The notes: a model not told the origin generated them from the sequence alone. Positions 1 through 14,335 are shown, counted from the stretch's first letter. The stretch: DNA of 42,617 nucleotides from Actinomycetota bacterium (GCA_045805245.1 JBJMLP010000226.1:1-42617), one strand, 5' to 3'. Translations and numbers: made by a program.

Positions 1-682
1 CCAGATCGCCCGCGTGATACGTGGCGCCCAGATCGCGAGCGAGCTCCGGTTTCGCGCCGTCCGTCACCACATCGAGCACGTGCATCTCGAAGCCGCGCTG
101 GACGCCCAGCATCGTTCCGAACAGCCCGAGCGGACCGGCGCCGGTGACGAGCGCCTTCTTCGGCTCCCAGCGTGAGCGGGAGCCGATCCGCTCCACGTGA
201 TCCCACGCCTTCGCGGCGACGCTGATCGGCTCGATCAGGACGGCGTGCTTGCCGAGCGAGGCGTCCACCTTGATCGCCGCGTCCGGTGGCACGCGGAACC
301 GGTCTCGCATGAAGCCGTCGAGACCCTTGATGCCGTGCTCCGTGTACCGGCCGTTCGTGCACATGTCCCACTCGTTCGCCGCGCACTGCGGACACGGGAC
401 GGGATCCGGCCGCCGGACGAACGCGACGAGGTGGTCGCCCGTCTCCCATCCGCTGCCGTCGGGAGCCTCCAGCACGCGTCCGAGCGACTCGTGGCCGAGG
501 ATCAGACGCTCTTTGCCCGGCGGCGCCTCTCCGTAGGCGCCCTCGACGATCTCGTTGTCGGTTCCGTCCACGCCGACCGCCAGCGTCTCCACGAGGACGG
601 ATCCCTCCTCGGCGCCGGGATCGGGGACCTCGAGGAGCTCCGCGCTCCCCTTCCGCTGTGGAACGACCGTGACCGCTCGCAT
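1..682 (-). CDS. Zn-dependent medium-chain dehydrogenase (glucose/alcohol dehydrogenase-like); C-terminus runs off the left edge
   Basis: My own minus-strand translation from ATG at 680-682 gives MRAVTVVPQRKGSAELLEVPDPGAEEGSVLVETLAVGVDGTDNEIVEGAYGEAPPGKERLILGHESLG, which includes the GHE zinc motif. It is absent from the ORF track because it is truncated by the window edge. The 197-925 plus-strand ORF is its shadow frame. Confidence 0.75.
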   Translation of the reverse strand, partial: MRAVTVVPQRKGSAELLEVPDPGAEEGSVLVETLAVGVDGTDNEIVEGAYGEAPPGKERLILGHESLGRVLEAPDGSGWETGDHLVAFVRRPDPVPCPQCAANEWDMCTNGRYTEHGIKGLDGFMRDRFRVPPDAAIKVDASLGKHAVLIEPISVAAKAWDHVERIGSRSRWEPKKALVTGAGPLGLFGTMLGVQRGFEMHVLDVVTDGAKPELARDLGATYHAGDL

Positions 683-921
683 GGCGCCTCCTGTTGGTTC
701 GGTGGTTTCCGCCTCGGTGTGGCCGGAGGTGGAGAGCGTTACAGCCCTGCCGGACCCGGCGCGGCCTCGAACGATACGCTTCCCACCGACGCGCATGGCC
801 CGTCCGAACCGCGTCGTTCGGCGCTCGGGGAGGCCGAAAGGCCCGTTGACCTGCCGATAAACAGCCGCCATCCTGCGGGCGTACAGTTCGTGACCTCGGA
901 CACGCCGAGCGAAAGGGGCCG

Positions 922-2946
922 ATGACCCGGGCGTCAGACGAGCTCAAGCGGCTCCGGAGCCTCATCTCCGACCTGGACGCCATCGTCTGGGAGGCCGAGC
1001 CCGAGACCCTCCGCTACACCTTCGTGAGCGAGCGCGCCGAGGACATCCTCGGCTACCGCCCGAGGGACTGGATCTCGAATCCCGAGTTCTGGGGCGACCA
1101 CATCCATCCCGACGACCGCGCGGCGACGATCTCGTTCAGCCGCGCCGCGGTCGCGCGCGGAGACGACTACGACATGGAGTACCGCTTCGTCGGCTCCGAC
1201 GGCTCGATCATCTGGATCCGCGATCTCGTCCACGTCGTACCGGACGACCAAGGGCACCCCGCGTGGCTCCGCGGGCTCATGGTCGACGTGACCGGCCAGA
1301 AGATGACGGAGCTCCGTCTCCAGGAGGCCGAGGAGAAGTACCGCACGCTGGTGGAGCGACTGCCGGCGATCGTCTACACCGAGGCCGGCAACGCCGCGAT
1401 CAACGCCGTGTCCTACATCTCCCCGCAGGTTGAGCGGATCCTCGGCTACGCCGGGGAGGAGTGGCTCCGCAACCCGGAGCTCTGGCGAAGCGTCGTGCAT
1501 CCCGACGACCGGGCGCGGGTGGAGCTCCAGAACCAGCGCGCGTTGAAGGCGGGCACATCGTTCGTCTCGGAGTACCGCGCGTTGTCGCAGTCCGGAGAAA
1601 CGGTGTGGTTCCGGGACGAGGCGGTGCCGCTCCGCGATCCGAACGGGGAGATCCTTTCGTGGCAGGGCGTGATGCTCGACGTGACCGCGACGAAGCGTGC
1701 GGAGCAGCAACTCGCCCGCGCGGAGCGCCGGTACAAGACCCTGGTCGAGCAATCGCCCGTCGTGACCTACATCGACGCGTTCACGAACGGCGAGGGCGCC
1801 GGTTCCGTCGCGTCCGCAGCCGAGGAGTCGACGATCTACATCTCGCCACAGGTGGAGGAGCTCCTCGGCTACACGGCGAAGGAGTGGACGAGCGATGAGA
1901 GCCTGTGGGAGCGCATCCTGCATCCGGACGACCGCGAGTGGGTGCTCGCTCAGTCACGGAGGCACGGCCGGAGCGGGAAGCCGTACGGCCTGGAGTATCG
2001 CCTCCAGAACAAGGACGGGAGCGTCGTCTGGGTCCACGATTGGGCCATCGTCATCCGGGACGACGACGGGAACCCGAAGTACTGGCAGGGGGTGATGGTC
2101 GACATCACCGGCGAGAAGCGTTCGGAGGAGTTGGAGGAAGCGCTCGCGCGTGAGCGCCTGTCGACCGATCAGCTGCGCGAGGCCGACGAGATGAAGAACA
2201 CCTTCCTTCAAGCCGTCTCGCACGACCTCCGCACACCGCTCGCCGCGATCCTCGGCATGGCGCTGACGCTCGAGCGCGACGACGTCCAACTCGAGCCCGA
2301 GGAAGCGAAGGAGATGGCCGGGAGGATCGCCGCCAACGCGCGGAAGCTCGACCGGCTCGTGAACGATCTCCTGGACCTCGACCGGCTCGGACGCGGCATC
2401 GTGGAGCTCGAGCTCCAGCCAGTCGACGTCGGAGCGCTGATCTGGCGGGAGGTCGCCGAGTCCGGCGTGATCGCAAAACGACGTGTGCATATCGACAGCC
2501 AGCCGATCACCGTGATGGTCGACGAGGCGATGGTGGAGCGCATCATCGAGAACCTCCTCGCGAACACGGTGCGGCACACGCCGGCGAACACCTCCGTGTG
2601 GGTCTCCGTCCGCGAGGCCGACGGCGGAGTCGTGATCGCGGTGGAGGACGACGGCCCCGGCGTTCCGGAGGAGCAGCGCGACGCGATCTTCCAGGCGTTC
2701 CGCCGGGGGCCCGAGGGAGCCGGCGCGGGCGTCGGCGTGGGGCTCGCGCTCGTCGCGAGGTTCGCGGAGCTCCACGGCGGCCGCGCCTGGGTGGAGGAGC
2801 GCGAAGGCGGCGGCGCGTCGTTCAAGGTCTTGCTCTCGAGCGGTCCGAACGCCGAGACCGAACCGCCGGGGGACGAAGAGGAACCCGACGGAAGCCCCGA
2901 GAGCAACGGCGACGGGTCCTCGCCCTCCGAGGAGCAGGGCTCCTAA
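922..2946 (+). CDS. Sensor histidine kinase with three tandem PAS domains, HisKA and HATPase_c
   Basis: Three repeats each end in W..(I/V/L)HPDDR: FWGDHIHPDDR, LWRSVVHPDDR, LWERILHPDDR. The H-box is FLQAVSHDLRTPL. N and G boxes are present (NLLANTVRHTP, EDDGPGVP, GVGVGLALV). Confidence 0.9.
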   Translation: MTRASDELKRLRSLISDLDAIVWEAEPETLRYTFVSERAEDILGYRPRDWISNPEFWGDHIHPDDRAATISFSRAAVARGDDYDMEYRFVGSDGSIIWIRDLVHVVPDDQGHPAWLRGLMVDVTGQKMTELRLQEAEEKYRTLVERLPAIVYTEAGNAAINAVSYISPQVERILGYAGEEWLRNPELWRSVVHPDDRARVELQNQRALKAGTSFVSEYRALSQSGETVWFRDEAVPLRDPNGEILSWQGVMLDVTATKRAEQQLARAERRYKTLVEQSPVVTYIDAFTNGEGAGSVASAAEESTIYISPQVEELLGYTAKEWTSDESLWERILHPDDREWVLAQSRRHGRSGKPYGLEYRLQNKDGSVVWVHDWAIVIRDDDGNPKYWQGVMVDITGEKRSEELEEALARERLSTDQLREADEMKNTFLQAVSHDLRTPLAAILGMALTLERDDVQLEPEEAKEMAGRIAANARKLDRLVNDLLDLDRLGRGIVELELQPVDVGALIWREVAESGVIAKRRVHIDSQPITVMVDEAMVERIIENLLANTVRHTPANTSVWVSVREADGGVVIAVEDDGPGVPEEQRDAIFQAFRRGPEGAGAGVGVGLALVARFAELHGGRAWVEEREGGGASFKVLLSSGPNAETEPPGDEEEPDGSPESNGDGSSPSEEQGS

Positions 2947-3971: not shown

Positions 3972-4583
3972 ATGGACAAGCTCGGACCCCGACATCGCAT
4001 GTGCCGCCGCGTGGGCGAAGCCCTCTGCGGCCGGCCCAACTGTCCCTCGCTCAAGCGGCCCTATCCGCCCGGCCAGCACGGCCGCGGCCGCAAGCGCCCG
4101 ACGGAGTTCCACATGCGTTTGGTCGAGAAGCAGAAGCTCCGCGCGATCTACAACGTCGGCGAACGGCAGATGCTCAACTACTTCACCCGCGCGAACTCCC
4201 GGAAGGGCGTCACGGGCGAGGAGCTCCTCCGCGAGCTGGAGTCGCGGCTCGACACGGTGGTCCTCCGGCTCGGCTTCGCGCTGACGATGCGCCAGGCCCG
4301 CCAGCTCGTCTCACACGGGCACGTCACAGTGAACGGAAAGCGCGTCGACGTTCCGAGCGCGAAGGTGAAGCCGGAGTCGACGATCGAGGTGGTTCCGAAG
4401 GCCCGCGCGTTCGTCGGCGTCCGCGAGGCGCTGGAGATCGCCCCCGAGCCGCCGGGCTACCTGTACCGGAACAAGGAGCAGTACCAGGGAACGCTGTCGC
4501 GTCTCCCGGAGCGCGACGAGGTTCCGCTGCCGGTCTCGGTAGAGGAGCGCCTCGTCGTCGAGTACTACTCCCCGCGTACCTAG
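3972..4583 (+). CDS. rpsD: 30S ribosomal protein S4
   Basis: This is the tail of the 2598-4583 ORF: MDKLGPRHRMCRRVGEAL...RPYPPGQHGRGRKRPTEFHMRLVEKQKLRAIYNVGERQ...LESRLDTVVLRLGFA.TMRQARQLVSHGHVTVNGKRVDVPS. It has the classic S4 N-terminus and S4 RNA-binding domain. ATG at 3972 is in frame. Confidence 0.93.
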   Translation: MDKLGPRHRMCRRVGEALCGRPNCPSLKRPYPPGQHGRGRKRPTEFHMRLVEKQKLRAIYNVGERQMLNYFTRANSRKGVTGEELLRELESRLDTVVLRLGFALTMRQARQLVSHGHVTVNGKRVDVPSAKVKPESTIEVVPKARAFVGVREALEIAPEPPGYLYRNKEQYQGTLSRLPERDEVPLPVSVEERLVVEYYSPRT

Positions 4584-5200
4584 GCGTCCGGGATGTCCGA
4601 AGGCTCCAGCGCGCTTCGTACGAACCGCACGACCTCTCGCTCACGCATCTTGAGCGCCGTGCGGCTCTTGTCCTCTCCGACGACCGCGCGGAGCACGCTC
4701 GCTTCGGTGAGCGACCCGATCACCGCCGTGTAGAGCGTGAACAGCAGCAGCGCCGGATCCTGGCGGCGGATCGTTCCTTCCTTCATTCCCGCCTCGAGGA
4801 ACGCCATCGCCCGGATCCGCAGCGGCTCCAGTGCGCCCGCGAATCGCTGGAACGCGTCCGGACCGATCCTTCCCGCCTCCCGGACGAACATCGGGAACTC
4901 CGGCCACTCTCCTGCGAGCTTGAACACCGCGTGGATGACGGCCTCCCCGCGACCCCACGTCGATTCCGTCTCCTCGATCGAGTCCGTGATGACCTCCGCC
5001 AGTCGGTCGCCGGCAGCCGCGAGGCACGCCTCCAGCAGCGCCTCCTTCGTCGGGAAGTAGTAGAGGAGCGTCTGCTTGCGGATGCCGACCGCCGACGCGA
5101 TCGCGTCGAGCGACGTCGCGTTGTAGCCGTCCCGGCCGAACGCCTGGATCGCCTCCTCGATCAGGAGGTGCTTGCGCTGCTCGCCACTCGGGCGCGTCAT
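4580..5200 (-). CDS. TetR/AcrR family transcriptional regulator (last gene of the lipid-type operon)
   Basis: Starts MTRPSGEQRKHLLIEEAIQAFGRDGYNATSLDAIASAVGIRKQTLLYYFPTKEALL, a typical TetR N-terminal HTH. Its ATG at 5198-5200 overlaps the upstream stop at 5197-5199 (ATGA). Confidence 0.9.
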   Translation of the reverse strand: MTRPSGEQRKHLLIEEAIQAFGRDGYNATSLDAIASAVGIRKQTLLYYFPTKEALLEACLAAAGDRLAEVITDSIEETESTWGRGEAVIHAVFKLAGEWPEFPMFVREAGRIGPDAFQRFAGALEPLRIRAMAFLEAGMKEGTIRRQDPALLLFTLYTAVIGSLTEASVLRAVVGEDKSRTALKMREREVVRFVRSALEPSDIPDA

Positions 5201-6102
5201 GTCCAGGCCGACGGCTTCGCGCGGCGCGGCGACTTCGATCCCTCCCAGACCCGGAGCCAGGAGGGGCCCTGCGGTCCCGACGACGCCGGCGTCTCGCCTT
5301 GTTCCGCGCGCCGGAGCGCCTCCCACCACGTCGTGCGGTCCTCGTCGAGGAGCGCCGCGATCGCCTGCGTCATCCTCCGGGAGAGGTCCTGATGCGACTC
5401 GCCCTCCTCCGGGTACAGCGGCCGTCCGTACCGCATCGAGATCGGCGGACGACCCGGCCGAGGCCAGCTCCGCCCCTTCGGCATCGCCGCGTACGCGCCT
5501 CTGATTCCGATCGGGACGACCGGGATCCCGAGCTCGATCGACAGTCGCGCCGCGCCGTGTCGGAACCGCTGCGTCCACCCGTCCGGAGACCGCCCCCCTT
5601 CCGGAAAGACGACCAGGCTCCAGCCGTCGCGAACGAGCTCCTTCGCGGTGTCGGTCGCGCCGCTGCCGCCGGCCCGGTCGATCGGAAAGGCGGCATACGC
5701 GAGGGCGGTGAACGCGCCGCGCCACCAGACGTCGAAGAAGTAGTCCTTCGCGGCGCCGACGGCGGTCTTCTCGCGGAACCGGTCCGGGAGCGTCGTCATG
5801 ATCAGCGAGGCGTCGAGGTGGCTCGTGTGGTTCGAGACGAACATCACGGGTCCGCGTACGCCCGCCAGCCGATCGCGCCCGTAGACGCGCGGCGCGGTCT
5901 CGTTCCAGACGACCGGCCGCAAGCCGTAGCGGAGGATCAGCTCTCTCGCCGCCCCCGCAGCCGGGGTTCGCGCCCAAGCGGTCGGGAAGATACCCGGCTC
6001 CTTCTCGGTCGCGTACGGCTCCGCGGAGCGTGGGACGAGCGGCCGGCGTCCCCACCGCCAGCCGCGGGCGATCTCGCTGAGCTCGTCCTTGACGCTCGCC
6101 AT
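5197..6102 (-). CDS. Lysophospholipid / 1-acyl-sn-glycerol-3-phosphate acyltransferase family protein (PlsC-type)
   Basis: HX4D motif NHTSHLD, motif III FPEGGRS, and VVPIGIRGA. Its ATG at 6100-6102 shares one nucleotide with the upstream stop at 6102-6104 (TGATG). Confidence 0.88.
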   Translation of the reverse strand: MASVKDELSEIARGWRWGRRPLVPRSAEPYATEKEPGIFPTAWARTPAAGAARELILRYGLRPVVWNETAPRVYGRDRLAGVRGPVMFVSNHTSHLDASLIMTTLPDRFREKTAVGAAKDYFFDVWWRGAFTALAYAAFPIDRAGGSGATDTAKELVRDGWSLVVFPEGGRSPDGWTQRFRHGAARLSIELGIPVVPIGIRGAYAAMPKGRSWPRPGRPPISMRYGRPLYPEEGESHQDLSRRMTQAIAALLDEDRTTWWEALRRAEQGETPASSGPQGPSWLRVWEGSKSPRRAKPSAWT

Positions 6103-7685
6103 CAGTGCACGTCCGCGATCGCGAGCGGCGGGTTGTGGAAGTACGTCATCGACGGACTCCGCCCGACCGTCTCGCCCGCCATCTCCAGCGCGTCGGAGAA
6201 CGACGTCGCGGAGCGGAACCCCATCCTCGCGGCCGCCTTACGGTTCCCGCCGACGAAGATCACGTCTCCCAGATAGTCGAGCGCGTGCGCACCCCAGTAC
6301 CACATGTAGAACGGATGCACGCCGTGGTACGCGTAGCTCGTCCGGTACAGGTGGATGTACCAGGGATCGGTCGCGTACTTCTCCTCGTATTTCGACTCGA
6401 TCGTGCTCGGATCCGTCGTCGCCGCCAGGACCTCCTCGTAGAAGTCGACGTAGGAGGGATGGTGGATCTGGTTGAACTCCGGCTCCAGCGGATGGAACAG
6501 GATCATCGCGCCGCCCGGGCGCACGAGCGGCTTGTTGCGGTACATGTTGAACAGATATCCGAGTCCGAGGCAGTGCGCGAGGATCGGATTCATGATCGAG
6601 TTCACGTTGTAGGGGCAGATGTACGGCAAGCCAACGACGAGGATGTCCGACTGGCCCTGCACCTCCACGAGTTGCTGCTTGTGGAGATTCGAGAGCGTGA
6701 TCTCGTGGACGGCCTCCGTCTCCCCCGCGGTGACGCCGGTGATCTTGTACGGCGCCTCGATGCGGCGGAACACCTCCCGCCGGATGCGGGAGGGCGCCAT
6801 GTCGTTCGCCTTCTTCGCCGCGTAGAACATCCCCTGGTCGGCGACCGACCACTCCCACTCGCGCTTGTTCAGGAATCCGAACTGCTTCGGGAACGTGTCG
6901 TTGTTGAGCGTCGTCTCGATCGTGAAGATGCGGACGTGGTCGGCGAGGAGCCTTCCCATCCGCGTCGCGGAGTCGTGGATCGCGGAATGTCCCTCCCGCG
7001 GATCCATGTACGACCGTGAGTGGAGCATCGTCTCCACGTTGTGGTGGTGCTTGAGAGACTTGTAGCTCGCGAGGCCGACGGGAACGGACTTGTGGCCGCC
7101 GTCCATCGCGACGAGGTTGATGTTCACGTAGACGATCAGGTCCGACTCCGCGGCGCGGCGGTTGATCTCCACGTCCTCGCCCTTGTCGGTCTTTCCGATA
7201 TGGAGGAGGTTGTCGCGGTCCTCCGCATCGTGATTCTTCAGATGCTTCGGATAGAAGGAGCGGAACACTCGCTCGCCGACCGCGCGGCGGATCTCCGCGG
7301 CTGTCATCCTGCGGTGCAGCGAGTTCGCGACGACCAGCTCAACGTCCTCGACGCCTGCCCGCGCCGCGAGCTCGATCACGTGCTCGATGATCCGTTGGCG
7401 GATGTCGGGCGCCACCATCGGTGGAAGCGGCAGCGAGATGTCGTCGAACGCGATCGTGAGCTTCATGCCGGGCTTCAGGAGCTCCGAAAGCGGTTCGGAG
7501 TTCTGCGGATGAAGCAGCGCCTTCCGGATCGCGGCGTCGACGTCTCCGATCCCGGGGAGTGGATCCGGCGGATACACCACCCGCGTCCCCATCGGGAATT
7601 TCTGCAGGCGGAAGCCCTCTCCTTCGTGGACGAGAAGCGGCGGCGTGCGCTCGTCCACGTCCAGCACGAATCCTGGTCTCGTCAT
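6102..7685 (-). CDS. LarA-like (lactate racemase N-terminal domain / DUF2088) protein, ~527 aa
   Basis: The real product starts MTRPGFVLDVDERTPPLLVHEGEGFRLQKFP...KLTIAFDDISLPLPPM...VANSLHRRMT...NINLVAMDGGHKSVPVGLASYKSLKHHHN. The family call rests on my recognition of the DUF2088/LarA N-terminal pattern. The upstream 356 aa of the 883-aa track ORF are Arg-rich shadow frame. ATG at 7683-7685 overlaps the upstream stop at 7682-7684. Confidence 0.7.
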   Translation of the reverse strand: MTRPGFVLDVDERTPPLLVHEGEGFRLQKFPMGTRVVYPPDPLPGIGDVDAAIRKALLHPQNSEPLSELLKPGMKLTIAFDDISLPLPPMVAPDIRQRIIEHVIELAARAGVEDVELVVANSLHRRMTAAEIRRAVGERVFRSFYPKHLKNHDAEDRDNLLHIGKTDKGEDVEINRRAAESDLIVYVNINLVAMDGGHKSVPVGLASYKSLKHHHNVETMLHSRSYMDPREGHSAIHDSATRMGRLLADHVRIFTIETTLNNDTFPKQFGFLNKREWEWSVADQGMFYAAKKANDMAPSRIRREVFRRIEAPYKITGVTAGETEAVHEITLSNLHKQQLVEVQGQSDILVVGLPYICPYNVNSIMNPILAHCLGLGYLFNMYRNKPLVRPGGAMILFHPLEPEFNQIHHPSYVDFYEEVLAATTDPSTIESKYEEKYATDPWYIHLYRTSYAYHGVHPFYMWYWGAHALDYLGDVIFVGGNRKAAARMGFRSATSFSDALEMAGETVGRSPSMTYFHNPPLAIADVH

Positions 7686-8899
7686 CGGTTGAGCTCCCCT
7701 CGGTTCTGCATCGGATCGAACGCGACCTTCACGGTTCCGAGCTTTCCAGCGCCGAACGCGTGGTCGATCGCGTCGCGCCAGCGATCCAACGGATACGTCG
7801 CGCCGACGAGGCGCTTGATGGGCGCGTCGGCGGTCAGTTCCAGGGCGATGTCGAAGCTGGACCGCGTCCTGCCGTTCAGCTGCTCCTCGCCGCTCGTGTA
7901 CGCGCCGACGAGCTCCAGCTCCCGGAACCACACCGGCGTCAGGTCTGCGCCGGATGGGATCCCGGTCAGGATCACCCGGCCACCCGCCTTCGTCGTCCGC
8001 AGCGCGAGGTCGAGGGAGCTCCTCGACCCGACGCACTCGAGCGCGACATCGACGCCCCCGAGGAGGAAGGGCGTTCCCCGCTCCGGCGTGAGCTTCACGG
8101 AGCGCGTCGCGCGCCGGAGCGATCCGATCGCGCGGTCGGGCGTCACGGTCTCGGAGGCGCCGAGCTCCATCGCGAGGTCGCGCTGATGCTCGTGCTTCGC
8201 CACGACCGTGATGCGTCCCGCGTCGGTGAGCTTCCGCAGTGCCAGCGTGACGAGCAGTCCGACGGTTCCGGCGCCGATGACGAGGACGTCGGCGTCGGGC
8301 TCGACACGGGCCGCCAGCGCGGCGTGAACGGCGCAGGCGAGCGGCTCGATCAGCACCGCGGGCTCGTCGTCGATCGCGTCGGGAACCTCGTGGAGCTGCG
8401 ATCGGTGCGCGACCAGCATCCGGCTCCAGCCGCCGCCGGTGTCCTTGCAGTAGCCGGTCTGCAGGCCCGCGGAGAGATGTCCCTCCGTCACGTGATCGCA
8501 GCGGCCGAGGTGGCCGGACGCGCACGCGGCGCACGGCGCGAGGCCGCGCGCGTAGCAGTTGAGCACCGGGTCGAGGACGACGCGCGTGCCGGCGGAGAGG
8601 CCGTCCGCGTCGTCGAGCAGCTCTCCGACGACCTCGTGGCCGGGAACGAACGGCAGCGACACGAGCGGAGAGAAGTAGAAGCTCGACTTGCCTGCGAGGA
8701 GGGCGAGATCCGAACCGCAGATGCCGGACAGGCGTGGACGGACGCGGACCCATCCGTCGGCCGGCGGCTCGGGATCACGCTTGTTCACCAACCGGATCGG
8801 CGCGAGCGGGCCGGAGAGCAATCCGGGGACCCGTTCTCCGACCGCCTTCGCGGCGAGGAAGCGCGGGGCGGAGCGGAAGAGCTCCAGCGCAAGGCTCAT
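7682..8899 (-). CDS. Zn-dependent alcohol dehydrogenase (MDR family), ~405 aa
   Basis: Starts MSLALELF. Contains GICGSDL, GHEVVGEL, a structural-Zn Cys cluster (CYARGLAPCAACASGHLGRC) and the Rossmann motif VIGAGTVGLL. ATG at 8897-8899 overlaps the upstream stop at 8896-8898 (ATGA). Confidence 0.88.
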   Translation of the reverse strand: MSLALELFRSAPRFLAAKAVGERVPGLLSGPLAPIRLVNKRDPEPPADGWVRVRPRLSGICGSDLALLAGKSSFYFSPLVSLPFVPGHEVVGELLDDADGLSAGTRVVLDPVLNCYARGLAPCAACASGHLGRCDHVTEGHLSAGLQTGYCKDTGGGWSRMLVAHRSQLHEVPDAIDDEPAVLIEPLACAVHAALAARVEPDADVLVIGAGTVGLLVTLALRKLTDAGRITVVAKHEHQRDLAMELGASETVTPDRAIGSLRRATRSVKLTPERGTPFLLGGVDVALECVGSRSSLDLALRTTKAGGRVILTGIPSGADLTPVWFRELELVGAYTSGEEQLNGRTRSSFDIALELTADAPIKRLVGATYPLDRWRDAIDHAFGAGKLGTVKVAFDPMQNRGELNR

Positions 8900-11178
8900 C
8901 TCGCGACCGCCGGTCTCGGCAGGCGCACCCGCGGAGAGCCCTCCGCCATCCCCCACTCCTCGATCGGCCACCGACGCCTGCGGGCGACGCGGAGCAGCGC
9001 GGCATCCGGGCTGACCACCACGGGGTTGCCGACCGCGCGGAGGAGCGGCAGATCGGAATGTGAGTCCGCGTACGCGTAGGACTTCTTCAGGTCGGCCCCC
9101 TCGGACTCGGCGTACCGGCGAAGCCACGCCGCTCGTGCCTCTCCGACGAGCGGAGGGGCGGCCAGGTAGCCGGTGAACCGGCCGTCCTTGACCGCGAGCC
9201 TCGCCGCGATGACGAGGTCGAACAGCGGAGCGAGCGGCTGCACGAACTCGTCCATCGCGGCCGTCACCAGGATCGTCCGATGACCCGCGGCTCGGTGCTC
9301 ACGGATGCGCCGGATCCCTGCCGCGGAGACCTTCTGGTACATGAACTCCGCGACGACGTCGCGCACCAGCTTCCGCACGCCTTCCACCGACGCTCCCTCG
9401 TACCGGCGGTAGAACGTGCGAAGGAACTCTCCGCGGTCGCGCCGGTCCGCCATCAGGTACGACGGGATGCGCGCGGCGACGGAGAGCATCTCCTTCGGCC
9501 AGTCGTCCGGCGCCAGGTCGGCGAGCCGCGCCCACACGTAGGACTCCACGACGTTGGAGGTGAGGATCGTGCCCTCCATGTCGAACACCGCGAGACGGAG
9601 CTCCTCCCCCTCGGCGATGCGCACCTTCGGCGTCGTCCGCCTGGTGGAGAGGTTCCGCAGGCTCGCGGTCACCGCCGGACAGTGGACGTCCTGGAGGTAG
9701 TGCCGCCAGTCGATCACCGCGGAGTCGAAGTAGAACGCGGCGCGATCCCCGTCGCCGAGCGCTCGGTACAGCCCGAGCGTTCGATCGTCGGTGTAGATCA
9801 CCTCCGCCTCGGTGTACGCGCCGTAGAGATCGGCATACCGGCGGATGAAGTCGAGGCGGTTCTTGTCCTTGTCGACGCGTCCCACCAAGTCGCGCATCCG
9901 CTTCGACTTCGGTAGGTGCGTCACCACGCGGTCGGCCGCCTTCGCGAGCTTCTCGCCGGTGGAGAGCAAGCGCTCCACGCGGAGCGCTCCTGGGAAGCTC
10001 CACTCCGGCACGCGGATCTCGCCGCGCCCGCGCTCCGGGAGCGGATGCTGCTCGAAGTACTCGCGCACGATCTCGTAGAGGCCGTGGTACTGGAGCGGGT
10101 GCCGGCTGCCGGAGCTGACGTGGAAGTACTGAGCCTTGGCCGGCTCCGGGGGCGTCGCCGCCACCACGAGCATCGCGTTCACGACGAGATCGACCGGGAT
10201 GATGTCGACGATGCCCTCGGGGATCCCGGGGAACTCGGGGATGTTCCCCTGCCCGTACGCGAGGATGATCGGCTCCGCCATCTTGAAGCCCTCGATCCAT
10301 CCCGGCGCCGGGTGCTCGAGCGCGCTCTCGATGATCGAGGGCCGCACGATCGAGAGCGGAAGGTCGGCGTCGCGCGCGAGCTCCTCCACGGCGCGCTCGC
10401 CCATCGCCTTCGTGAACGTGTAGAGGTCCGGCCATCCGAGCGTCTGCGCTCGCGCGCGCCCGTAGTTCACGAGGCGCTTCGTGACCCAGTCCTTGCGCCG
10501 CTGCTCCGCGTCGCCGGCGACGGTCTGGGGACCCGCGCGCGAGTGTTCCTTGCGCGCCTCCTCCATGAAGTGGTCGAGGAGCTCGGGCTTCCGGGAAGCG
10601 GCCTCGACGTCTCGACGGGCGGTGAGCGCGAGGTCCGCCTCCGTGCGCCAGTCGACGCGATGGTCCAGCGTCGCCTCGGGAACGACGCCCTTCTTCATGC
10701 CGGCGACGTAGGCCGTGGAGACGTGGACGAGGTGCGGCGTCGAGCCGCTGGCGCGAACCGCCTCGTAGAACTTGACCGCTCCGAGGAGGTTCGTCTGGAA
10801 GCCCTCGTCGATCGGCGGATCGAAGGAGACCTCCGCGGCACAATGCAGGACGACGTCGAGATCGCTCGGGAACGGCGGAGGTGCTTTCGTGAAGTCGCCG
10901 TCGACGATCTCCACTCGGTCATCGAGAAGCTTGATGAGGCCTTCGTCTCCGTGCTCCTTGCGAAGGCGGTCGAACGAGGGCCGCTTGATGAGGGTCTCGA
11001 TCCGATCGCGACCGGTCGCTCCGAGCTGCGGCCGAACGAGGAGGACGATCTTGGCGTCGGGGACCGAGGAGAGGACCTTCTCGAAGACGGCCTGCCCGAG
11101 GAATCCCGTCACACCCGTGATGAGCAGGCGTTTTCCGGCGAGTCGGCCCGCGACGGGGGCGGAGGAGTTCTCTACCAT
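8896..11178 (-). CDS. Fusion protein: fatty acyl-CoA/ACP reductase (NAD_binding_4 type SDR) N-terminal, HAD-IB hydrolase C-terminal
   Basis: N-terminal part has LLITGVTGFLGQ (Rossmann), catalytic YTFTK and VSSG.RHPL. C-terminal part has AVFDMEGTIL (HAD motif I, with Glu where the second Asp is expected) and YADSHSDLPLL (motif IV). I prefer ATG at 11176-11178 (MVENSS) over the track's TTG at 11214, because a promoter-like element sits exactly upstream of it. Confidence 0.85.
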   Translation of the reverse strand: MVENSSAPVAGRLAGKRLLITGVTGFLGQAVFEKVLSSVPDAKIVLLVRPQLGATGRDRIETLIKRPSFDRLRKEHGDEGLIKLLDDRVEIVDGDFTKAPPPFPSDLDVVLHCAAEVSFDPPIDEGFQTNLLGAVKFYEAVRASGSTPHLVHVSTAYVAGMKKGVVPEATLDHRVDWRTEADLALTARRDVEAASRKPELLDHFMEEARKEHSRAGPQTVAGDAEQRRKDWVTKRLVNYGRARAQTLGWPDLYTFTKAMGERAVEELARDADLPLSIVRPSIIESALEHPAPGWIEGFKMAEPIILAYGQGNIPEFPGIPEGIVDIIPVDLVVNAMLVVAATPPEPAKAQYFHVSSGSRHPLQYHGLYEIVREYFEQHPLPERGRGEIRVPEWSFPGALRVERLLSTGEKLAKAADRVVTHLPKSKRMRDLVGRVDKDKNRLDFIRRYADLYGAYTEAEVIYTDDRTLGLYRALGDGDRAAFYFDSAVIDWRHYLQDVHCPAVTASLRNLSTRRTTPKVRIAEGEELRLAVFDMEGTILTSNVVESYVWARLADLAPDDWPKEMLSVAARIPSYLMADRRDRGEFLRTFYRRYEGASVEGVRKLVRDVVAEFMYQKVSAAGIRRIREHRAAGHRTILVTAAMDEFVQPLAPLFDLVIAARLAVKDGRFTGYLAAPPLVGEARAAWLRRYAESEGADLKKSYAYADSHSDLPLLRAVGNPVVVSPDAALLRVARRRRWPIEEWGMAEGSPRVRLPRPAVAR

Positions 11179-11209
11179 GCGGTAGATACTGGCATCTACC
11201 AGTTGGTAG
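11172..11209 (-). promoter_or_regulatory. Two copies of the palindrome CTACC-N4-GGTAG (11172-11185 and 11196-11209); candidate operator pair for the operon-encoded TetR
   Basis: Read directly: tCTACCatgcGGTAGa, then a 10-nt spacer, then CTACCagttGGTAG. The centres are 24 bp apart. One copy covers the ATG/TSS and the other sits in the -35/-10 spacer. The stretch is locally AT-richer than its surroundings. Confidence 0.5.
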
Positions 11210-11214
11210 GTCAA
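11186..11214 (-). promoter_or_regulatory. Sigma-70-like promoter for the lipid-type operon, predicted leaderless
   Basis: Minus strand reads TTGACC (11214-11209), a 17-nt spacer, CAGTAT (11191-11186), 7 nt, then ATG (11178-11176). There is no Shine-Dalgarno, and the spacing places the TSS at or next to the A of the ATG. Confidence 0.45.
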
Positions 11215-11239
11215 CTCGTTACCCGGACGCCGGCGGGCG

Positions 11240-14200
11240 TTAGTTCCTTGCTTTCAGTTCCTCGAGGACGGCCTTCGCGTTCGCCTCTCCGACCACGTTG
11301 CCCTTGCGCCGCAGGAGTTCCAGAGCCTCCTCCACCACCGACTCCGCTTCGCGGTCCCGGTCCTGCAAGCGAAGCACCTCCGCCAGGCTCATCAGCGCAT
11401 GAGCTTGCAGGTTCAGGTAGTCGGTCTCGCGCACGAGCGCGGCCGCCTCGCGCGCGAAACGTTCCCCTTTCTCCTGTTCGCCGAAGCGCGCCAAGGACTT
11501 CGCGCGGAGCTGGCGCCATCGCACGCCGGCGTCGGCGTCTCCCTCGATCGTGATGGTCTCCGCGAACTCCGAGAGCTTCAACGCTTCGTCGTAGCGACCC
11601 TCCGCATAGATCGCGTCTCCGAGGTCCGGAGCCACGCTGGAGAGATGGCCGACGTCGTTGATCCGATCGAGCATCTCGTACGCGACGCGAAGCTCCGCCT
11701 CCGCCTTCGCCGGTTCCCCCGCGAGCATCTCCAACGCCCCCGAGTCACGGTGAACGGCCGCGAACGTCACCTGATCCCCGAGCTCCTGGGCGAGCCTCCT
11801 CCCCTCGGCGATGCTGGCACGACCCTCGTCGAACATGCCGCGCATCGAATCGAGCTCCGCCCGGGTCCTCGCCGCGGCAAGTTGAACGCGCGGATCGCCG
11901 ACGCCGTCTTCGACCAACTCGTCCAGACGCCGGAGCCCCTCCTCCACAGGCACCGGTCCGACGTCCAGCCCGAGGAGGAGCCATCGGAGGATCTCTCCGC
12001 GCTGGCGGACGTCTCCCGCGCTCGCGGCATGGGCGAGGGCCTGCTCCAGCATCTGCCCCGATTCCGCGACGTGGCCCTGCCAGAACCTGACGGTGCCGAG
12101 GATGCGCTCCGCCTCGGACATCCCGAGGTCGTCGCCCCATTCCTCGAAGGAAGCGAGGTAGCCCCCGGCCTCCGCGAGCGCGGCCGCCTGCTCGATGTCG
12201 GGATCGAGGAGCAGACGCGCGAAGACCCGGCGCAGCGAGGCGCGCGCCTCCAGCAACGGGTCGTTCGCGGCGCGAGCGGCCTCCACCGCATCCGTGAGGG
12301 TGTCCTCCGCTCGAGCGATATCGACGTACGCGAGGGCGACGCCGAGCTCCGCGAGCAGCTCCGCGCGGAAGTGATCTCCGTCGGGGAGAAGCTCCACCGC
12401 CCGATGGAACAGGTTGACGGCGGACTTCACCTCCCCCCGGTCGAGTGCTCGGCGTCCCGCGCCGCCGAGCTCTCCGGCAGCCTCCTTGGCAAGCGCCGTG
12501 GTGTGTTCGTCCGGCGGCCCGAGGTCCACCGCGTACCGATACGCGCTCTCGAGATGGGCACCTCGAACCTCTCCGAACTCCGAAGCGCGGTCTCCCGCCT
12601 TCGCCAGAAGCCACGACGCGAACCGCGCGTGGAGATCCGCCCGCGCACGCTTCGGCGTGGAGTCGTACGCGGCGTCGCGAACGAGGACGTGACTGAAGCG
12701 GAACGCGTCCTCTCCCACGAATGTCGAGGCATCCGGCCGAACGAGCTCCTTCCGAAGCAGCGTCTGGAGGTGTGAGCCGACCCGCGGGCGGTCGCCCTCC
12801 GGCGAGAGCTCCGTGATGGCTCCCCACCAGAACGTCCTCCCGATCACCGAGGCGCGTTGCACGACCGCGCGTTCGTCGGGCTCCAGCTGGTCGAGCCGCG
12901 CCGCGAGCAACGCGTGGATGGTTCCGGGCACGTCCACCTCCGAGAGGTCGCCGGTCGGCGTCCAGTGACCGTCGCTCCGCTGGAGACGGCCCTCGTCGAT
13001 CAGCATCCGCAACATCTCCTCGACGAACAGCGGATTGCCCTCCGCCGCGGAGGAGATGCGTTCCCCGGTATCGCCGGTCAGGCCGGCCGCTCCGAGGAGG
13101 TTGGCGATCAGCTCCTTCGACTGGGCGTCGGTGAGCGGCTCGAGCTCGATCACCCGGGTTTCGCGAAGCCAATCCGGGCGGAGCTCGCGAAGGTCCGGGC
13201 GCGACGTGCAAAGCAGGACGATCGGATGACCGGTGCTGAAGCCGATCACGTACTGGAGGAGATCGAGGAACGTCGGCTCCGCCCAGTGGAGATCCTCGAG
13301 CACGACCATCAGAGGACGTTCCGCCGCCACGATCTCCAGGAGGCGGCGCACGGCCCAGAACGTCTGCTGGATGTCACCGGTCGCCTCCGCAAGACCGACC
13401 GCGGCTGCGAGGCGCTCCGCGACGTTGTTCCCGTCGACCGCGTCGACGGTGACCGCGACGATCTTCGAGCGACGCTGTTCGGGCCCGTCGGCGTCCACGA
13501 CGCCCGCCGCGGCGTCGACGAGCTCCACGACCGGAAGAAGGCTGATGCCCTCGCCGTAGGGCAGGCACCGCGTGGACAACACGTGGGCTTCGTCGCCGGT
13601 CCTCGTCACGAACTCGTTGACGAGACGCGTCTTGCCGAGGCCTGCGTCGCCGAGGACCGTCGAGGAGCCGCACGCTCGCCGCTCCACGGCATCGTCGTAG
13701 GTCCGCTGGAGGGCCCGCAGCTCTTCCTCGCGGCCGACGATCGGAGAGTCGAGACGCCTTTCGAAGGGAACCGCGACGTTCAGCACCTCCAGCAGGCGGA
13801 ACGCGGGCATGCGCTCGCTCTTTCCCTTGAGCTCGAGCGGATCGACGGCGTCGACACGGACTGCGTCCCGGACGAGGCGGCGTGTCTCCTCACCGAGGAG
13901 GATCTCTCCCGGCTCGGCGGCCTGCTCGAGGCGGGCCGCGACGTTCACGGCATCTCCGGTCACGAAGGTCTGGTCATCCGTGGGATCCACGGCGACGACC
14001 TGCCCCGTGTTCACGCCCGTCCGGATCTCCAGGTGCGCGCGCCAGCCGCGTTCGAGCTCCGCGTTCAACGTTGTGAGGAGATCGCGCATCTCCGAGGCGG
14101 CGCGGAGGGCCCGGAGCGCGTCGTCCTCGTGGACGGTCGGAACGCCGAAGACCGCCATCACCGCGTCCCCGATGAACTTCTCGACGGTGCCGCCGTGCCG

Positions 14201-14335
14201 CTCGATCGCGGCCCGCATCTCATCGAAATAGCGCGACATCACGCCGCGGAGCGACTCCGGATCGAGCTGTTCTCCCAGCGAGGTGGAGCCCACCACGTCG
14301 GAGAACAGGATCGTGACGGTCTTGCGGACCTCCAT
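11240..14335 (-). CDS. Class III adenylate/guanylate cyclase fused to a STAND-type P-loop NTPase and C-terminal TPR-like repeats (1031 aa)
   Basis: Cyclase motifs TILFSDVVGST, EKFIGDAVMAVFG and GDAVNVAARLE. Walker A is LGDAGLGKTRL. A long helical-repeat C-terminus follows. No LuxR HTH was recognised. Confidence 0.88.
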   Translation of the reverse strand: MEVRKTVTILFSDVVGSTSLGEQLDPESLRGVMSRYFDEMRAAIERHGGTVEKFIGDAVMAVFGVPTVHEDDALRALRAASEMRDLLTTLNAELERGWRAHLEIRTGVNTGQVVAVDPTDDQTFVTGDAVNVAARLEQAAEPGEILLGEETRRLVRDAVRVDAVDPLELKGKSERMPAFRLLEVLNVAVPFERRLDSPIVGREEELRALQRTYDDAVERRACGSSTVLGDAGLGKTRLVNEFVTRTGDEAHVLSTRCLPYGEGISLLPVVELVDAAAGVVDADGPEQRRSKIVAVTVDAVDGNNVAERLAAAVGLAEATGDIQQTFWAVRRLLEIVAAERPLMVVLEDLHWAEPTFLDLLQYVIGFSTGHPIVLLCTSRPDLRELRPDWLRETRVIELEPLTDAQSKELIANLLGAAGLTGDTGERISSAAEGNPLFVEEMLRMLIDEGRLQRSDGHWTPTGDLSEVDVPGTIHALLAARLDQLEPDERAVVQRASVIGRTFWWGAITELSPEGDRPRVGSHLQTLLRKELVRPDASTFVGEDAFRFSHVLVRDAAYDSTPKRARADLHARFASWLLAKAGDRASEFGEVRGAHLESAYRYAVDLGPPDEHTTALAKEAAGELGGAGRRALDRGEVKSAVNLFHRAVELLPDGDHFRAELLAELGVALAYVDIARAEDTLTDAVEAARAANDPLLEARASLRRVFARLLLDPDIEQAAALAEAGGYLASFEEWGDDLGMSEAERILGTVRFWQGHVAESGQMLEQALAHAASAGDVRQRGEILRWLLLGLDVGPVPVEEGLRRLDELVEDGVGDPRVQLAAARTRAELDSMRGMFDEGRASIAEGRRLAQELGDQVTFAAVHRDSGALEMLAGEPAKAEAELRVAYEMLDRINDVGHLSSVAPDLGDAIYAEGRYDEALKLSEFAETITIEGDADAGVRWRQLRAKSLARFGEQEKGERFAREAAALVRETDYLNLQAHALMSLAEVLRLQDRDREAESVVEEALELLRRKGNVVGEANAKAVLEELKARN

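Follow-up and report, generated by a model that had tools for sequence, protein, structure and literature searches.

An actinobacterial operon with a LarA homologue is apparently a variant of the elb-type ether-lipid cluster

In a 42,617-nucleotide stretch of DNA from an Actinomycetota bacterium (GCA_045805245.1 JBJMLP010000226.1:1-42617, called the window here), five minus-strand genes form an operon. They encode a fatty acyl-CoA/ACP reductase (FAR) fused to a predicted HAD-IB phosphatase, a zinc-dependent alcohol dehydrogenase (Zn-ADH), a homologue of the lactate racemase LarA, an acyltransferase of the PlsC/AGPAT family and a TetR-family regulator. This operon is apparently a variant of the elb-type ether-lipid cluster of Myxococcus xanthus, and the apparently new part is that a core enzyme of such clusters is a nickel-pincer LarA homologue. 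We consider it somewhat better than an even chance that the operon is the actinobacterial, domain-reshuffled counterpart of M. xanthus elbB-elbE. An earlier note on this DNA had stated that no characterised pathway links these activities. This was wrong, as FAR, HAD-IB, LarA-like and AGPAT modules also make up elbB-elbD, of which elbD is needed for alkyl-ether glycerolipids. The lipid-pathway role that the same note had proposed is likely.

The connection between the two clusters is clearest for the LarA homologue. It carries a Lar_N domain (Pfam: PF09861, E-value 6e-42) and reaches 914.5 bits with the NF052592 profile (LarAH14/15/16), which has a cut-off of 740 bits. The LarAH groups were defined by Desguin et al. 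2020 (PMC7583248), who labelled these groups 'unknown function' and whose supplement lists MXAN_1529 of M. xanthus in group 15. The M. xanthus locus encodes an Epimerase protein (326 amino acids), an HAD protein (Pfam: PF12710, 221 amino acids), the Lar_N protein MXAN_1529 (536 amino acids), a protein of 1470 amino acids with the domain order NAD_binding_4-Sterile-AMP-binding-PP-binding-Acyltransferase, and another Epimerase protein (342 amino acids). As this domain order matches the published elbA-E, MXAN_1529 is elbC, a protein of 'unknown function' in the published description. ElbC scores 848.8 bits against NF052592, so that both it and the LarA homologue of the window lie above the cut-off, and the two proteins are 48% identical over 521 amino acids (E-value 0.0, 513 bits).

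The other modules have their Elb relatives as well. The FAR domain aligns with ElbD residues 9-539 (29% identity over 563 aligned positions, E-value 8e-51), the HAD domain with ElbB (32% identity over 214 amino acids, E-value 4.5e-33; both pass the TIGR01490 cut-off) and the acyltransferase with ElbD residues 1199-1416 (30% identity, E-value 5e-23), where HX4D and FPEGxRS are common to both. One module set is thus found in two fusion patterns, with FAR-HAD and a free acyltransferase in the operon and a fusion of FAR, acyl-CoA synthetase (ACS), acyl carrier protein (ACP) and acyltransferase next to a free HAD protein in M. xanthus, a classical kind of evidence for joint action of the modules. 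No Elb protein corresponds to the Zn-ADH. ElbE is a non-homologous short-chain dehydrogenase/reductase (SDR) which resembles lipid 3-ketoreductases, and at a threshold of E<1e-6 neither the window nor any of the 80 related loci described below yielded an ElbA or ElbE homologue.

According to the published work on M. xanthus, elbD (MXAN_1528) is genetically required for the formation of alkyl-ether glycerolipids and plasmalogens, an i15:0 aldehyde depends on elbD, ElbE is needed for the ether lipids, and the knockout of AGPS (MXAN_1676) has only a minor effect. The same sources place the elb cluster also in SD4 Acidobacteria that produce ether lipids. Our literature search found no publication joining ether lipids with lactate racemase or LarA. 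The connection of ElbC with LarA is, as far as checked, new to print.

Gene order was compared in 80 genome loci, with each gene scored only where the contig reaches. FAR-HAD, the LarA homologue and PlsC follow a single order in all 80 loci, and the ADH sits between HAD and the LarA homologue in 78 of the 79 loci which reach its position. The sole ADH-less locus with contig coverage is L076:2474-10465 of Streptomyces sp. NPDC057702. Conservation of the gene neighbourhood, whose absence the earlier note had named among the results that would refute it, is strong, and the claim of the note survives this check. The cassette spans many Actinomycetota orders and was found in Frankia, Actinomadura, Micromonospora, Actinoplanes, Phytohabitans, Nocardioides, Kribbella, Streptomyces, Haloechinothrix, Jiangellaceae and many metagenome-assembled genomes (MAGs). 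Among its cultured carriers are Nocardioides soli DSM 105498, Kribbella orskensis VKM Ac-2538, Actinoallomurus spadix KCTC 9252 and Phytohabitans aurantiacus. Its most conserved member is the LarA homologue, with 65-79% identity versus 44-80% for the other cassette proteins. This protein has thousands of relatives, many of them 76-84% identical, and in a scan with one genome per species they are encoded in at least 592 species genomes. The TetR gene is confined to the closest relatives among the 80 loci.

Some loci carry additional genes near the cassette. An aldehyde dehydrogenase (Pfam: PF00171, E-value 3e-159) lies downstream of PlsC in L021, L023, L024, L031, L038 and L041, which are Frankiales and Mycobacteriales MAGs, and AMP-binding genes resembling acyl-CoA synthetases are located within 1-6 kb of the cassette in Nocardioides-type loci only. 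Both would fit fatty aldehyde or acyl-CoA intermediates. A 2.7-kb contig of an Omnitrophota genome labelled Candidatus Velamenicoccus archaeovorus (L048) holds a LarA homologue (74% identical), PlsC and TetR in the actinobacterial arrangement, and is probably a mis-binned actinobacterial contig. A 291-amino-acid open reading frame (ORF) present in six loci (L040:1943-2818) was rejected as a cassette gene, having no Pfam match and being a shadow ORF antisense to larC. Many other 'conserved' clusters of flanking ORFs were likewise rejected as antisense shadow ORFs of high-GC DNA.

The residues of the LarA homologue were mapped on the LarA_Ip numbering and checked over 81 sequences. Invariant are D82 (ribose contact), H124 (catalytic His, which is the first catalytic His, His108 of LarA_Lp), K199 (cofactor tether) and H215 (Ni ligand). 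At the position of the second catalytic His (His173 in LarA_Ip, His174 in LarA_Lp) stands N190, with N, T or S throughout the 81 sequences, and at the position of the carboxylate-binding Arg73 of LarA_Ip (Arg75 in LarA_Lp) stands L85, with L, I or V in all of them. With the cofactor site kept and both of these residues replaced, the LarA homologue is no classical 2-hydroxyacid racemase. The best match in the PDB is the single-His LarA 9q2u (E-value 8e-32), with an alignment that extends over both domains; Mar2 reaches only 1e-13. Groups 14 and 15 are without the His174 equivalent, and structures of the related single-His group 17 have been solved (Gatreddi et al. 2025, bioRxiv 10.1101/2025.08.19.671153). 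When Desguin et al. 2020 (PMC7583248) supplied the cofactor to the LarAH14 protein of Frankia, none of their seven 2-hydroxyacid assays showed activity. The replaced residues and the inactive Frankia protein make it unlikely that the LarA homologue sets C2 stereochemistry on a 2-hydroxy acyl group, as the earlier note had suggested.

The supplement of PMC7583248 tabulates AGPAT, PSP/HAD, COG1063 (Zn-ADH) and thioester reductase as neighbours of group 14, and two NAD-epimerases, HAD and a long-chain acyl-CoA synthetase as neighbours of group 15. In the same supplement, the Frankia proteins of group 16 (FRAAL3757 and Francci3_2278) are without the cofactor-tethering Lys, and Francci3_2278 is also without the catalytic His. 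The group 16 genes too adjoin AGPAT and HAD genes, and could represent a second cassette copy that has degenerated.

Besides the conserved cofactor site, the genes around the cassette point to a nickel-pincer nucleotide. By clustering the flanking ORFs of the 80 loci and annotating them with Pfam, we recognised larE-like (PP-loop ATPase), larB-like (AIR-carboxylase family) and larC (Ni_insertion, E-value 4e-109) genes adjoining the cassette in about 19 of the 80 loci. These loci belong to at least five orders and include Actinomadura, Micromonospora, Actinoallomurus, Actinoplanes, Haloechinothrix, Streptomyces, Thermomonospora and several MAGs. One example is L076, where the genes larE-larB-larC-FAR-HAD-LarAH-PlsC follow each other on one strand without a Zn-ADH. 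The adjacent larB, larC and larE genes are strong contextual evidence that the LarAH14/15/16 family uses the nickel-pincer nucleotide, and this suggests that a nickel cofactor works in a bacterial lipid pathway.

The domain assignments of the earlier note are all right: the Pfam and NCBIfam profile searches agree with them and the motifs it quoted are present. Conservation of the catalytic motifs of FAR, HAD and acyltransferase was scored over 70-76 homologues. The FAR domain matches NAD_binding_4 (E-value 3e-48, 164.6 bits) and, weakly, Sterile (29.3 bits, under the cut-off of 35.4 bits). It aligns over its full length (residues 9-504, E-value 5e-50) with the fatty acyl-CoA reductase of PDB 7eoz, and its motifs TGxTGFxG and YTxTK are conserved. 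The HAD domain matches PF12710 (E-value 2e-33) and TIGR01490 (116.7 bits, cut-off 98.3 bits), with FDx(D/E)GT and DSxSD conserved among the homologues. Its motif I is FDMEGT at FAR-HAD residues 532-537, with a Glu for the usual second Asp (DxE instead of DxD); this residue is Glu in 31 of 74 homologues and Asp in the other 43. PF12710 HAD domains fused to AGPAT are proposed phosphatidate phosphatases in Actinomycetota. The Zn-ADH is composed of ADH_N and ADH_zinc_N domains, and its nearest solved structures are ketose reductase and the threonine, xylitol, sorbitol and butanediol dehydrogenases. PlsC matches the Acyltransferase family (E-value 6e-22) and the Thermotoga maritima PlsC structure (PDB 5kym, E-value 4e-15); its nearest structural relative is a 1-acyl-glycerol-3-phosphate acyltransferase, and NHxSHxD and FPEGxRS are conserved in 76 sequences. 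Pfam detected no FAD-binding or AGPS domain in the five operon products, and no AMP-binding or PP-binding domain in the operon.

In eukaryotes, AGPS forms the 1-O-alkyl bond of ether lipids via a flavin N5 adduct. On balance we lean slightly towards an operon which makes an ether glycerolipid by an alkyl-ether route independent of AGPS. In this route the FAR domain would convert a fatty acyl thioester to an aldehyde or alcohol, and PlsC would transfer an acyl group to dihydroxyacetone phosphate (DHAP) or glycerol-3-phosphate and, at a later stage, to sn-2. The nickel-pincer LarA homologue would form the 1-O-alkyl bond in place of AGPS, either by a transient hydride abstraction at glycerol C2 (borrowed hydrogen) or with the substrate enolate as a covalent adduct at the pyridinium C4, comparable to the flavin N5 adduct of AGPS. 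Next, the polyol-type Zn-ADH would reduce the 2-keto (alkyl-DHAP) intermediate, a job for which the counterpart in M. xanthus would be the non-homologous ElbE, and the HAD-IB domain would remove the phosphate, so that an alkyl(acyl)glycerol becomes available for ether lipids, whether neutral or polar. TetR would act on two CTACCN4GGTAG palindromes, at the promoter and at the start codon, and a lipid ligand would presumably release it.

Since the mapping leaves over one module, the LarA homologue, and one step, ether-bond formation, we propose LarAH14/ElbC for the role of AGPS. The enzyme would combine acyl-glycerol-phosphate or acyl-DHAP with a fatty alcohol or aldehyde to a 1-O-alkyl lipid. 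One catalytic His would be enough because no inversion is needed, and the hydrophobic residue found where LarA binds the carboxylate would suit a lipid substrate. This assignment is tentative, and we regard it as possible rather than probable.

Several points weigh against the reading as an ether-lipid operon with the LarA homologue at its centre. The Leu at the Arg73 position loses a residue which in LarA also binds the cofactor phosphate, and tblastn found none of larB, larC and larE in the 42.6-kb window. The FAR domain is no nearer to ElbD (176 bits) than to a Marinobacter-type FAR (174 bits). The actinobacterial cassette contains neither the ACS-ACP didomain of ElbD nor the SDR ElbE, so the actinobacterial pathway may differ. 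In the published work, the phenotype of the elbB insertion is ascribed to polar effects and elbC is without a knockout, and in Pontiella ElbD homologues are present, yet no ether lipids were detected. Our literature search found no report of ether lipids in the actinobacterial genera which carry the cassette, and nothing relevant on alkylglycerol monoethers. The evidence proper ends at homology, conservation, residues and context, and the pathway steps beyond these, above all the chemical role given to the LarA homologue, are inference.

Among the alternatives, the one that survives best is a neutral-lipid module with ester bonds only, in which the FAR gives a fatty alcohol and PlsC with HAD forms a Kennedy-type branch (from lysophosphatidic acid to phosphatidic acid to diacylglycerol) or wax esters. 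The ADH and the LarA homologue would supply or recycle a small polyol or hydroxyacid precursor, and no ether bond would be made. Such a module would agree with the PF12710 HAD-AGPAT fusions in actinobacterial triacylglycerol and wax ester clusters, with a FAR as near to the wax-ester FARs as to ElbD, and with the aldehyde dehydrogenase and acyl-CoA synthetase genes which flank the cassette in some lineages. We judge it unlikely, since no WS/DGAT gene is found in the cassette or its conserved flanks, and since it explains neither the invariable presence and top conservation of the LarA homologue nor the recurrence of the module set in the ether-lipid elb operon.

Slightly more doubtful again is that the LarA homologue is a nickel-pincer isomerase of a soluble phosphorylated polyol or sugar-acid, as has been proposed for the single-His group 17 enzymes, and that the operon builds an unusual head group or an acylated small molecule such as a signalling lipid instead of a membrane ether lipid. 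The closest solved structures are indeed single-His LarAs of group 17, whose genes lie in a sugar-phosphate context. The ADH is similar to sugar and polyol dehydrogenases, the HAD domain, as a predicted phosphatase, implies a phosphorylated intermediate, and a dedicated TetR control is typical of specialised metabolism. However, the elb homology would then have to mislead on function, the carboxylate- or phosphate-binding position, which is Lys in group 17, is L, I or V here, and no sugar transport or kinase genes are conserved nearby. A pathway to an A-factor-like butyrolactone derived from acyl-DHAP was dropped for want of an AfsA homologue and because of the FAR domain.

The earlier note had favoured a third possibility, in which the FAR forms a long-chain 1,2-diol from a 2-hydroxy fatty acyl group, its C2 stereochemistry is determined by the LarA homologue, and acylation of the diol gives a non-glycerol lipid of the Thermomicrobium type. 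The FAR, the acyltransferase and a LarA-family protein are all there, LarA enzymes do act at C2 hydroxyls, and a polyol-type ADH could handle a vicinal diol. We nevertheless regard it as improbable. None of the 81 sequences has the carboxylate-binding Arg or the second catalytic His on which inversion depends. Frankia LarAH14 shows no activity on 2-hydroxyacids, and the homologous elb cluster belongs with glycerol ether lipids instead of diols. No fatty acid 2-hydroxylase occurs in the cassette or its conserved flanks, and the phosphatase is left without a role unless the backbone is phosphorylated. Nothing in this analysis points to a 1,2-diol or another non-glycerol backbone, and the nearest structural relatives of PlsC and ADH fit a glycerol-phosphate or DHAP backbone.

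That the LarA homologue is a non-catalytic scaffold or pseudo-enzyme, with all chemistry done by the other enzymes, is very improbable: two canonical catalytic or substrate-binding residues are lost, LarAH14 showed no activity in the in vitro assays, and the Frankia paralogues of group 16 lack even the Lys and at least one listed member the catalytic His, but the protein is the most conserved of the cassette, its Asp, His, Lys and His cofactor ligands are invariant and larB, larC and larE are co-located in many genomes.

The operon and its predicted control elements are listed in Table 1. Each of the five ORFs translates cleanly, and they are joined by ATGA overlaps at 8896-8899, 7682-7685 and 5197-5200 and by a TGATG with base 6102 in common. 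Independent gene calls in a 97%-identical metagenomic relative (L083) give the same five genes with 4-nt overlaps. The five overlapping minus-strand ORFs of the earlier note are thus borne out, and so is their reading as one expression unit, given that a scan of the window found no terminator-like sites within 4400-11500 and that the start at 11178 is backed by a conserved promoter and operator layout.

Four-base overlaps are frequent in high-GC operons, and the G+C content of the window is about 69%. As the overlaps alone are ordinary, what goes beyond chance is the synteny. The stretch 6001-8000 around the LarA homologue has a G+C content of 65% versus about 70% in its neighbours, though its protein is the most conserved one. 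Hydropathy showed no convincing membrane helix in any of the five operon proteins; peaks in FAR and ADH were rejected because they are segments of the Rossmann core.

Table 1. Operon genes and predicted promoter and operator elements, with positions counted from the first nucleotide of the window.
Feature	Position	Strand	Description
FAR-HAD	8896-11178	-	760 aa; fatty acyl-CoA/ACP reductase (residues ~9-505) and HAD-IB phosphatase (~528-740), predicted
Zn-ADH	7682-8899	-	405 aa; Zn-dependent medium-chain dehydrogenase/reductase (MDR), polyol/secondary-alcohol type
LarA homologue	6102-7685	-	527 aa; LarAH14/15/16 (ElbC) family, presumed nickel-pincer-nucleotide enzyme
PlsC/AGPAT-family acyltransferase	5197-6102	-	301 aa; PF01553
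TetR-family regulator	4580-5200	-	206 aa; last operon gene; likely autorepressor at O1/O2
-35-like hexamer TTGACC	11209..11214	-	17 nt upstream of -10-like CAGTAT; TTGTCT in place in relatives
Operator O1 (candidate TetR site)	11196..11209	.	palindrome CTACCAACTGGTAG between -35 and -10; CTACCN4GGTAG match
-10-like hexamer CAGTAT	11186..11191	-	CATAAT in relatives; 7 nt upstream of ATG
Operator O2 (candidate)	11172..11185	.	palindrome CTACCGCATGGTAG with start codon inside; CTACCN4GGTAG match

The TetR protein matches TetR_N (Pfam, E-value 2.5e-14). The pattern CTACCN4GGTAG has two matches in the 42.6 kb (0.22 expected), both at the promoter and start of the operon. Furthermore, 12 TetR-carrying loci have it upstream of FAR-HAD, and none of the loci without TetR does. 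As TetR is confined to the loci with these operators, it is a likely autorepressor acting on O1 and O2, and the operon is likely TetR-repressed at the two predicted sites. Aligning the upstream regions of 13 relatives gave a conserved layout of TTGtCTACCnnnnGGTAGA, a spacer, CATAAT and CTGCCGnATGGTAGAG, in which the -35 abuts O1 and is followed by the -10 and then O2. A strict sigma-70 consensus scan called no promoter here, and the layout emerged solely from this alignment. The relatives keep CTGCCGnATGGTAGAG at O2 with an ATG/GTG-GTA-GAG (M-V-E) start inside; in the window the operon start at 11178 is ATG GTA GAG. With the -10 only 7 nt before the ATG, the predicted mRNA would start at 11178 and is probably leaderless. 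In one MAG contig (L015:2140-2200) the promoter/operator module (TCTACCAACCGGTAGA ... CATAATCTGCCACATGGTAGAG) is located between FAR-HAD and ADH and not upstream of FAR-HAD, which suggests a differently split transcription unit.

The genes flanking the operon are ordinary chromosomal ones, namely rpsD, a cyclase-AAA-TPR regulator, an AlkZ-like gene, asd, ask, recR and dnaX. The regulator gene at 11240-14335 (-), directly upstream of the operon promoter, encodes a class III adenylate/guanylate cyclase fused to AAA_16 and TPR (1031 amino acids). L083 has it too, with an inserted methyltransferase gene separating the cyclase from FAR-HAD; in other taxa it is not kept beside the cassette. At the other end, the TetR stop codon (4580-4582, -) overlaps by a few bases with the end of the convergent ribosomal protein S4 gene (4583, +), with no terminator-like structure detected there. 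A second MDR Zn-dehydrogenase (ADH_N and Glu_dehyd_C), unrelated to the operon, lies about 3.6 kb past the TetR end at 2-943 (-), truncated by the window edge, and at L083:17001-18182.

The operon bears on two questions. The first concerns the AGPS-independent formation of alkyl-ether glycerolipids in aerobic bacteria, where genetics has pointed to the Elb route since 2014 and the literature describes the steps from fatty acid to ether lipid as unknown. The second is the role of the LarA homologues without the second catalytic His (groups 14 and 15), which were inactive in vitro. The membership of ElbC in the LarAH14/15 family, the recurring module set and the adjacent nickel-pincer genes lead to a concrete and testable hypothesis. 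If LarAH14/ElbC forms the ether bond, this would be the first non-racemase reaction of the nickel-pincer nucleotide cofactor and the first nickel-dependent step in membrane-lipid synthesis, and would widen nickel-pincer chemistry. Many soil Actinomycetota, such as Frankia, Nocardioides, Kribbella, Micromonospora, Actinomadura and others, would then make overlooked ether lipids. Non-isoprenoid alkyl glycerol ethers serve as environmental biomarkers, and Actinomycetota would be possible sources of them.

Of the known systems, elbA-elbE of M. xanthus (MXAN_1531-1527; Lorenzen et al. 2014; MIBiG: BGC0000871) shares with the operon a LarAH14/15/16 protein, a FAR, an AGPAT-type acyltransferase and a TIGR01490 HAD-IB protein, which are adjacent and co-directional. 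It differs in that FAR and acyltransferase are fused with acyl-CoA synthetase and ACP in the 1470-amino-acid ElbD and the HAD is separate, whereas in the operon the FAR is fused to the HAD, the acyltransferase is separate and there is no ACS-ACP module. The operon also has an MDR Zn-ADH where elb has the SDR ElbE, adds TetR and its operators, and comes from another phylum. The link to ether lipids is established for elb and predicted for the actinobacterial cassette.

Within the LarA superfamily, the comparison is closest with the single-His group 17 enzymes LarA_Sp and LarA_Bw (PDB: 9q2u, 9q3k, 9q3j). The Lar_N fold is common to all of them, and as in LarA the Asp, the catalytic His, the cofactor-tethering Lys and the Ni-ligand His are kept, and larB, larC and larE are linked in some relatives. 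Further points of agreement are an Asn in place of the second catalytic His and a length some 100 residues above that of LarA. Unlike LarA and group 17, the family of the LarA homologue carries Leu, Ile or Val in place of the phosphate- and carboxylate-binding Arg or Lys. Its genomic context consists of lipid enzymes, in contrast to the glycolytic or sugar genes of LarA and group 17.

The eukaryote-type ether route, also present in M. xanthus (MXAN_1676-1674), consists of FAR1, GNPAT, AGPS, an acyl/alkyl-DHAP reductase, AGPAT and a phosphatase. All of these steps save that of AGPS would map onto the FAR, PlsC, secondary-alcohol dehydrogenase and phosphatase modules of the operon. The alcohol-forming FAR of the Marinobacter Maqu_2220 type (PDB: 7eoz) aligns over the full length and has TGxxGxxG and YxxxK in common with the operon FAR. 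Unlike this FAR, which is located beside a wax synthase, the operon FAR carries a C-terminal HAD-IB domain and is part of an elb-like cassette. Finally, the actinobacterial PlsC-HAD fusions (AGPAT and PF12710) of triacylglycerol and wax ester clusters, for example the plsC-like gene of R. jostii RHA1, have the HAD family in common with the operon, which is there a proposed lipid phosphate phosphatase. Unlike in these fusions, no WS/DGAT gene lies nearby, the partner of the HAD domain is a reductase and a LarA homologue is present.

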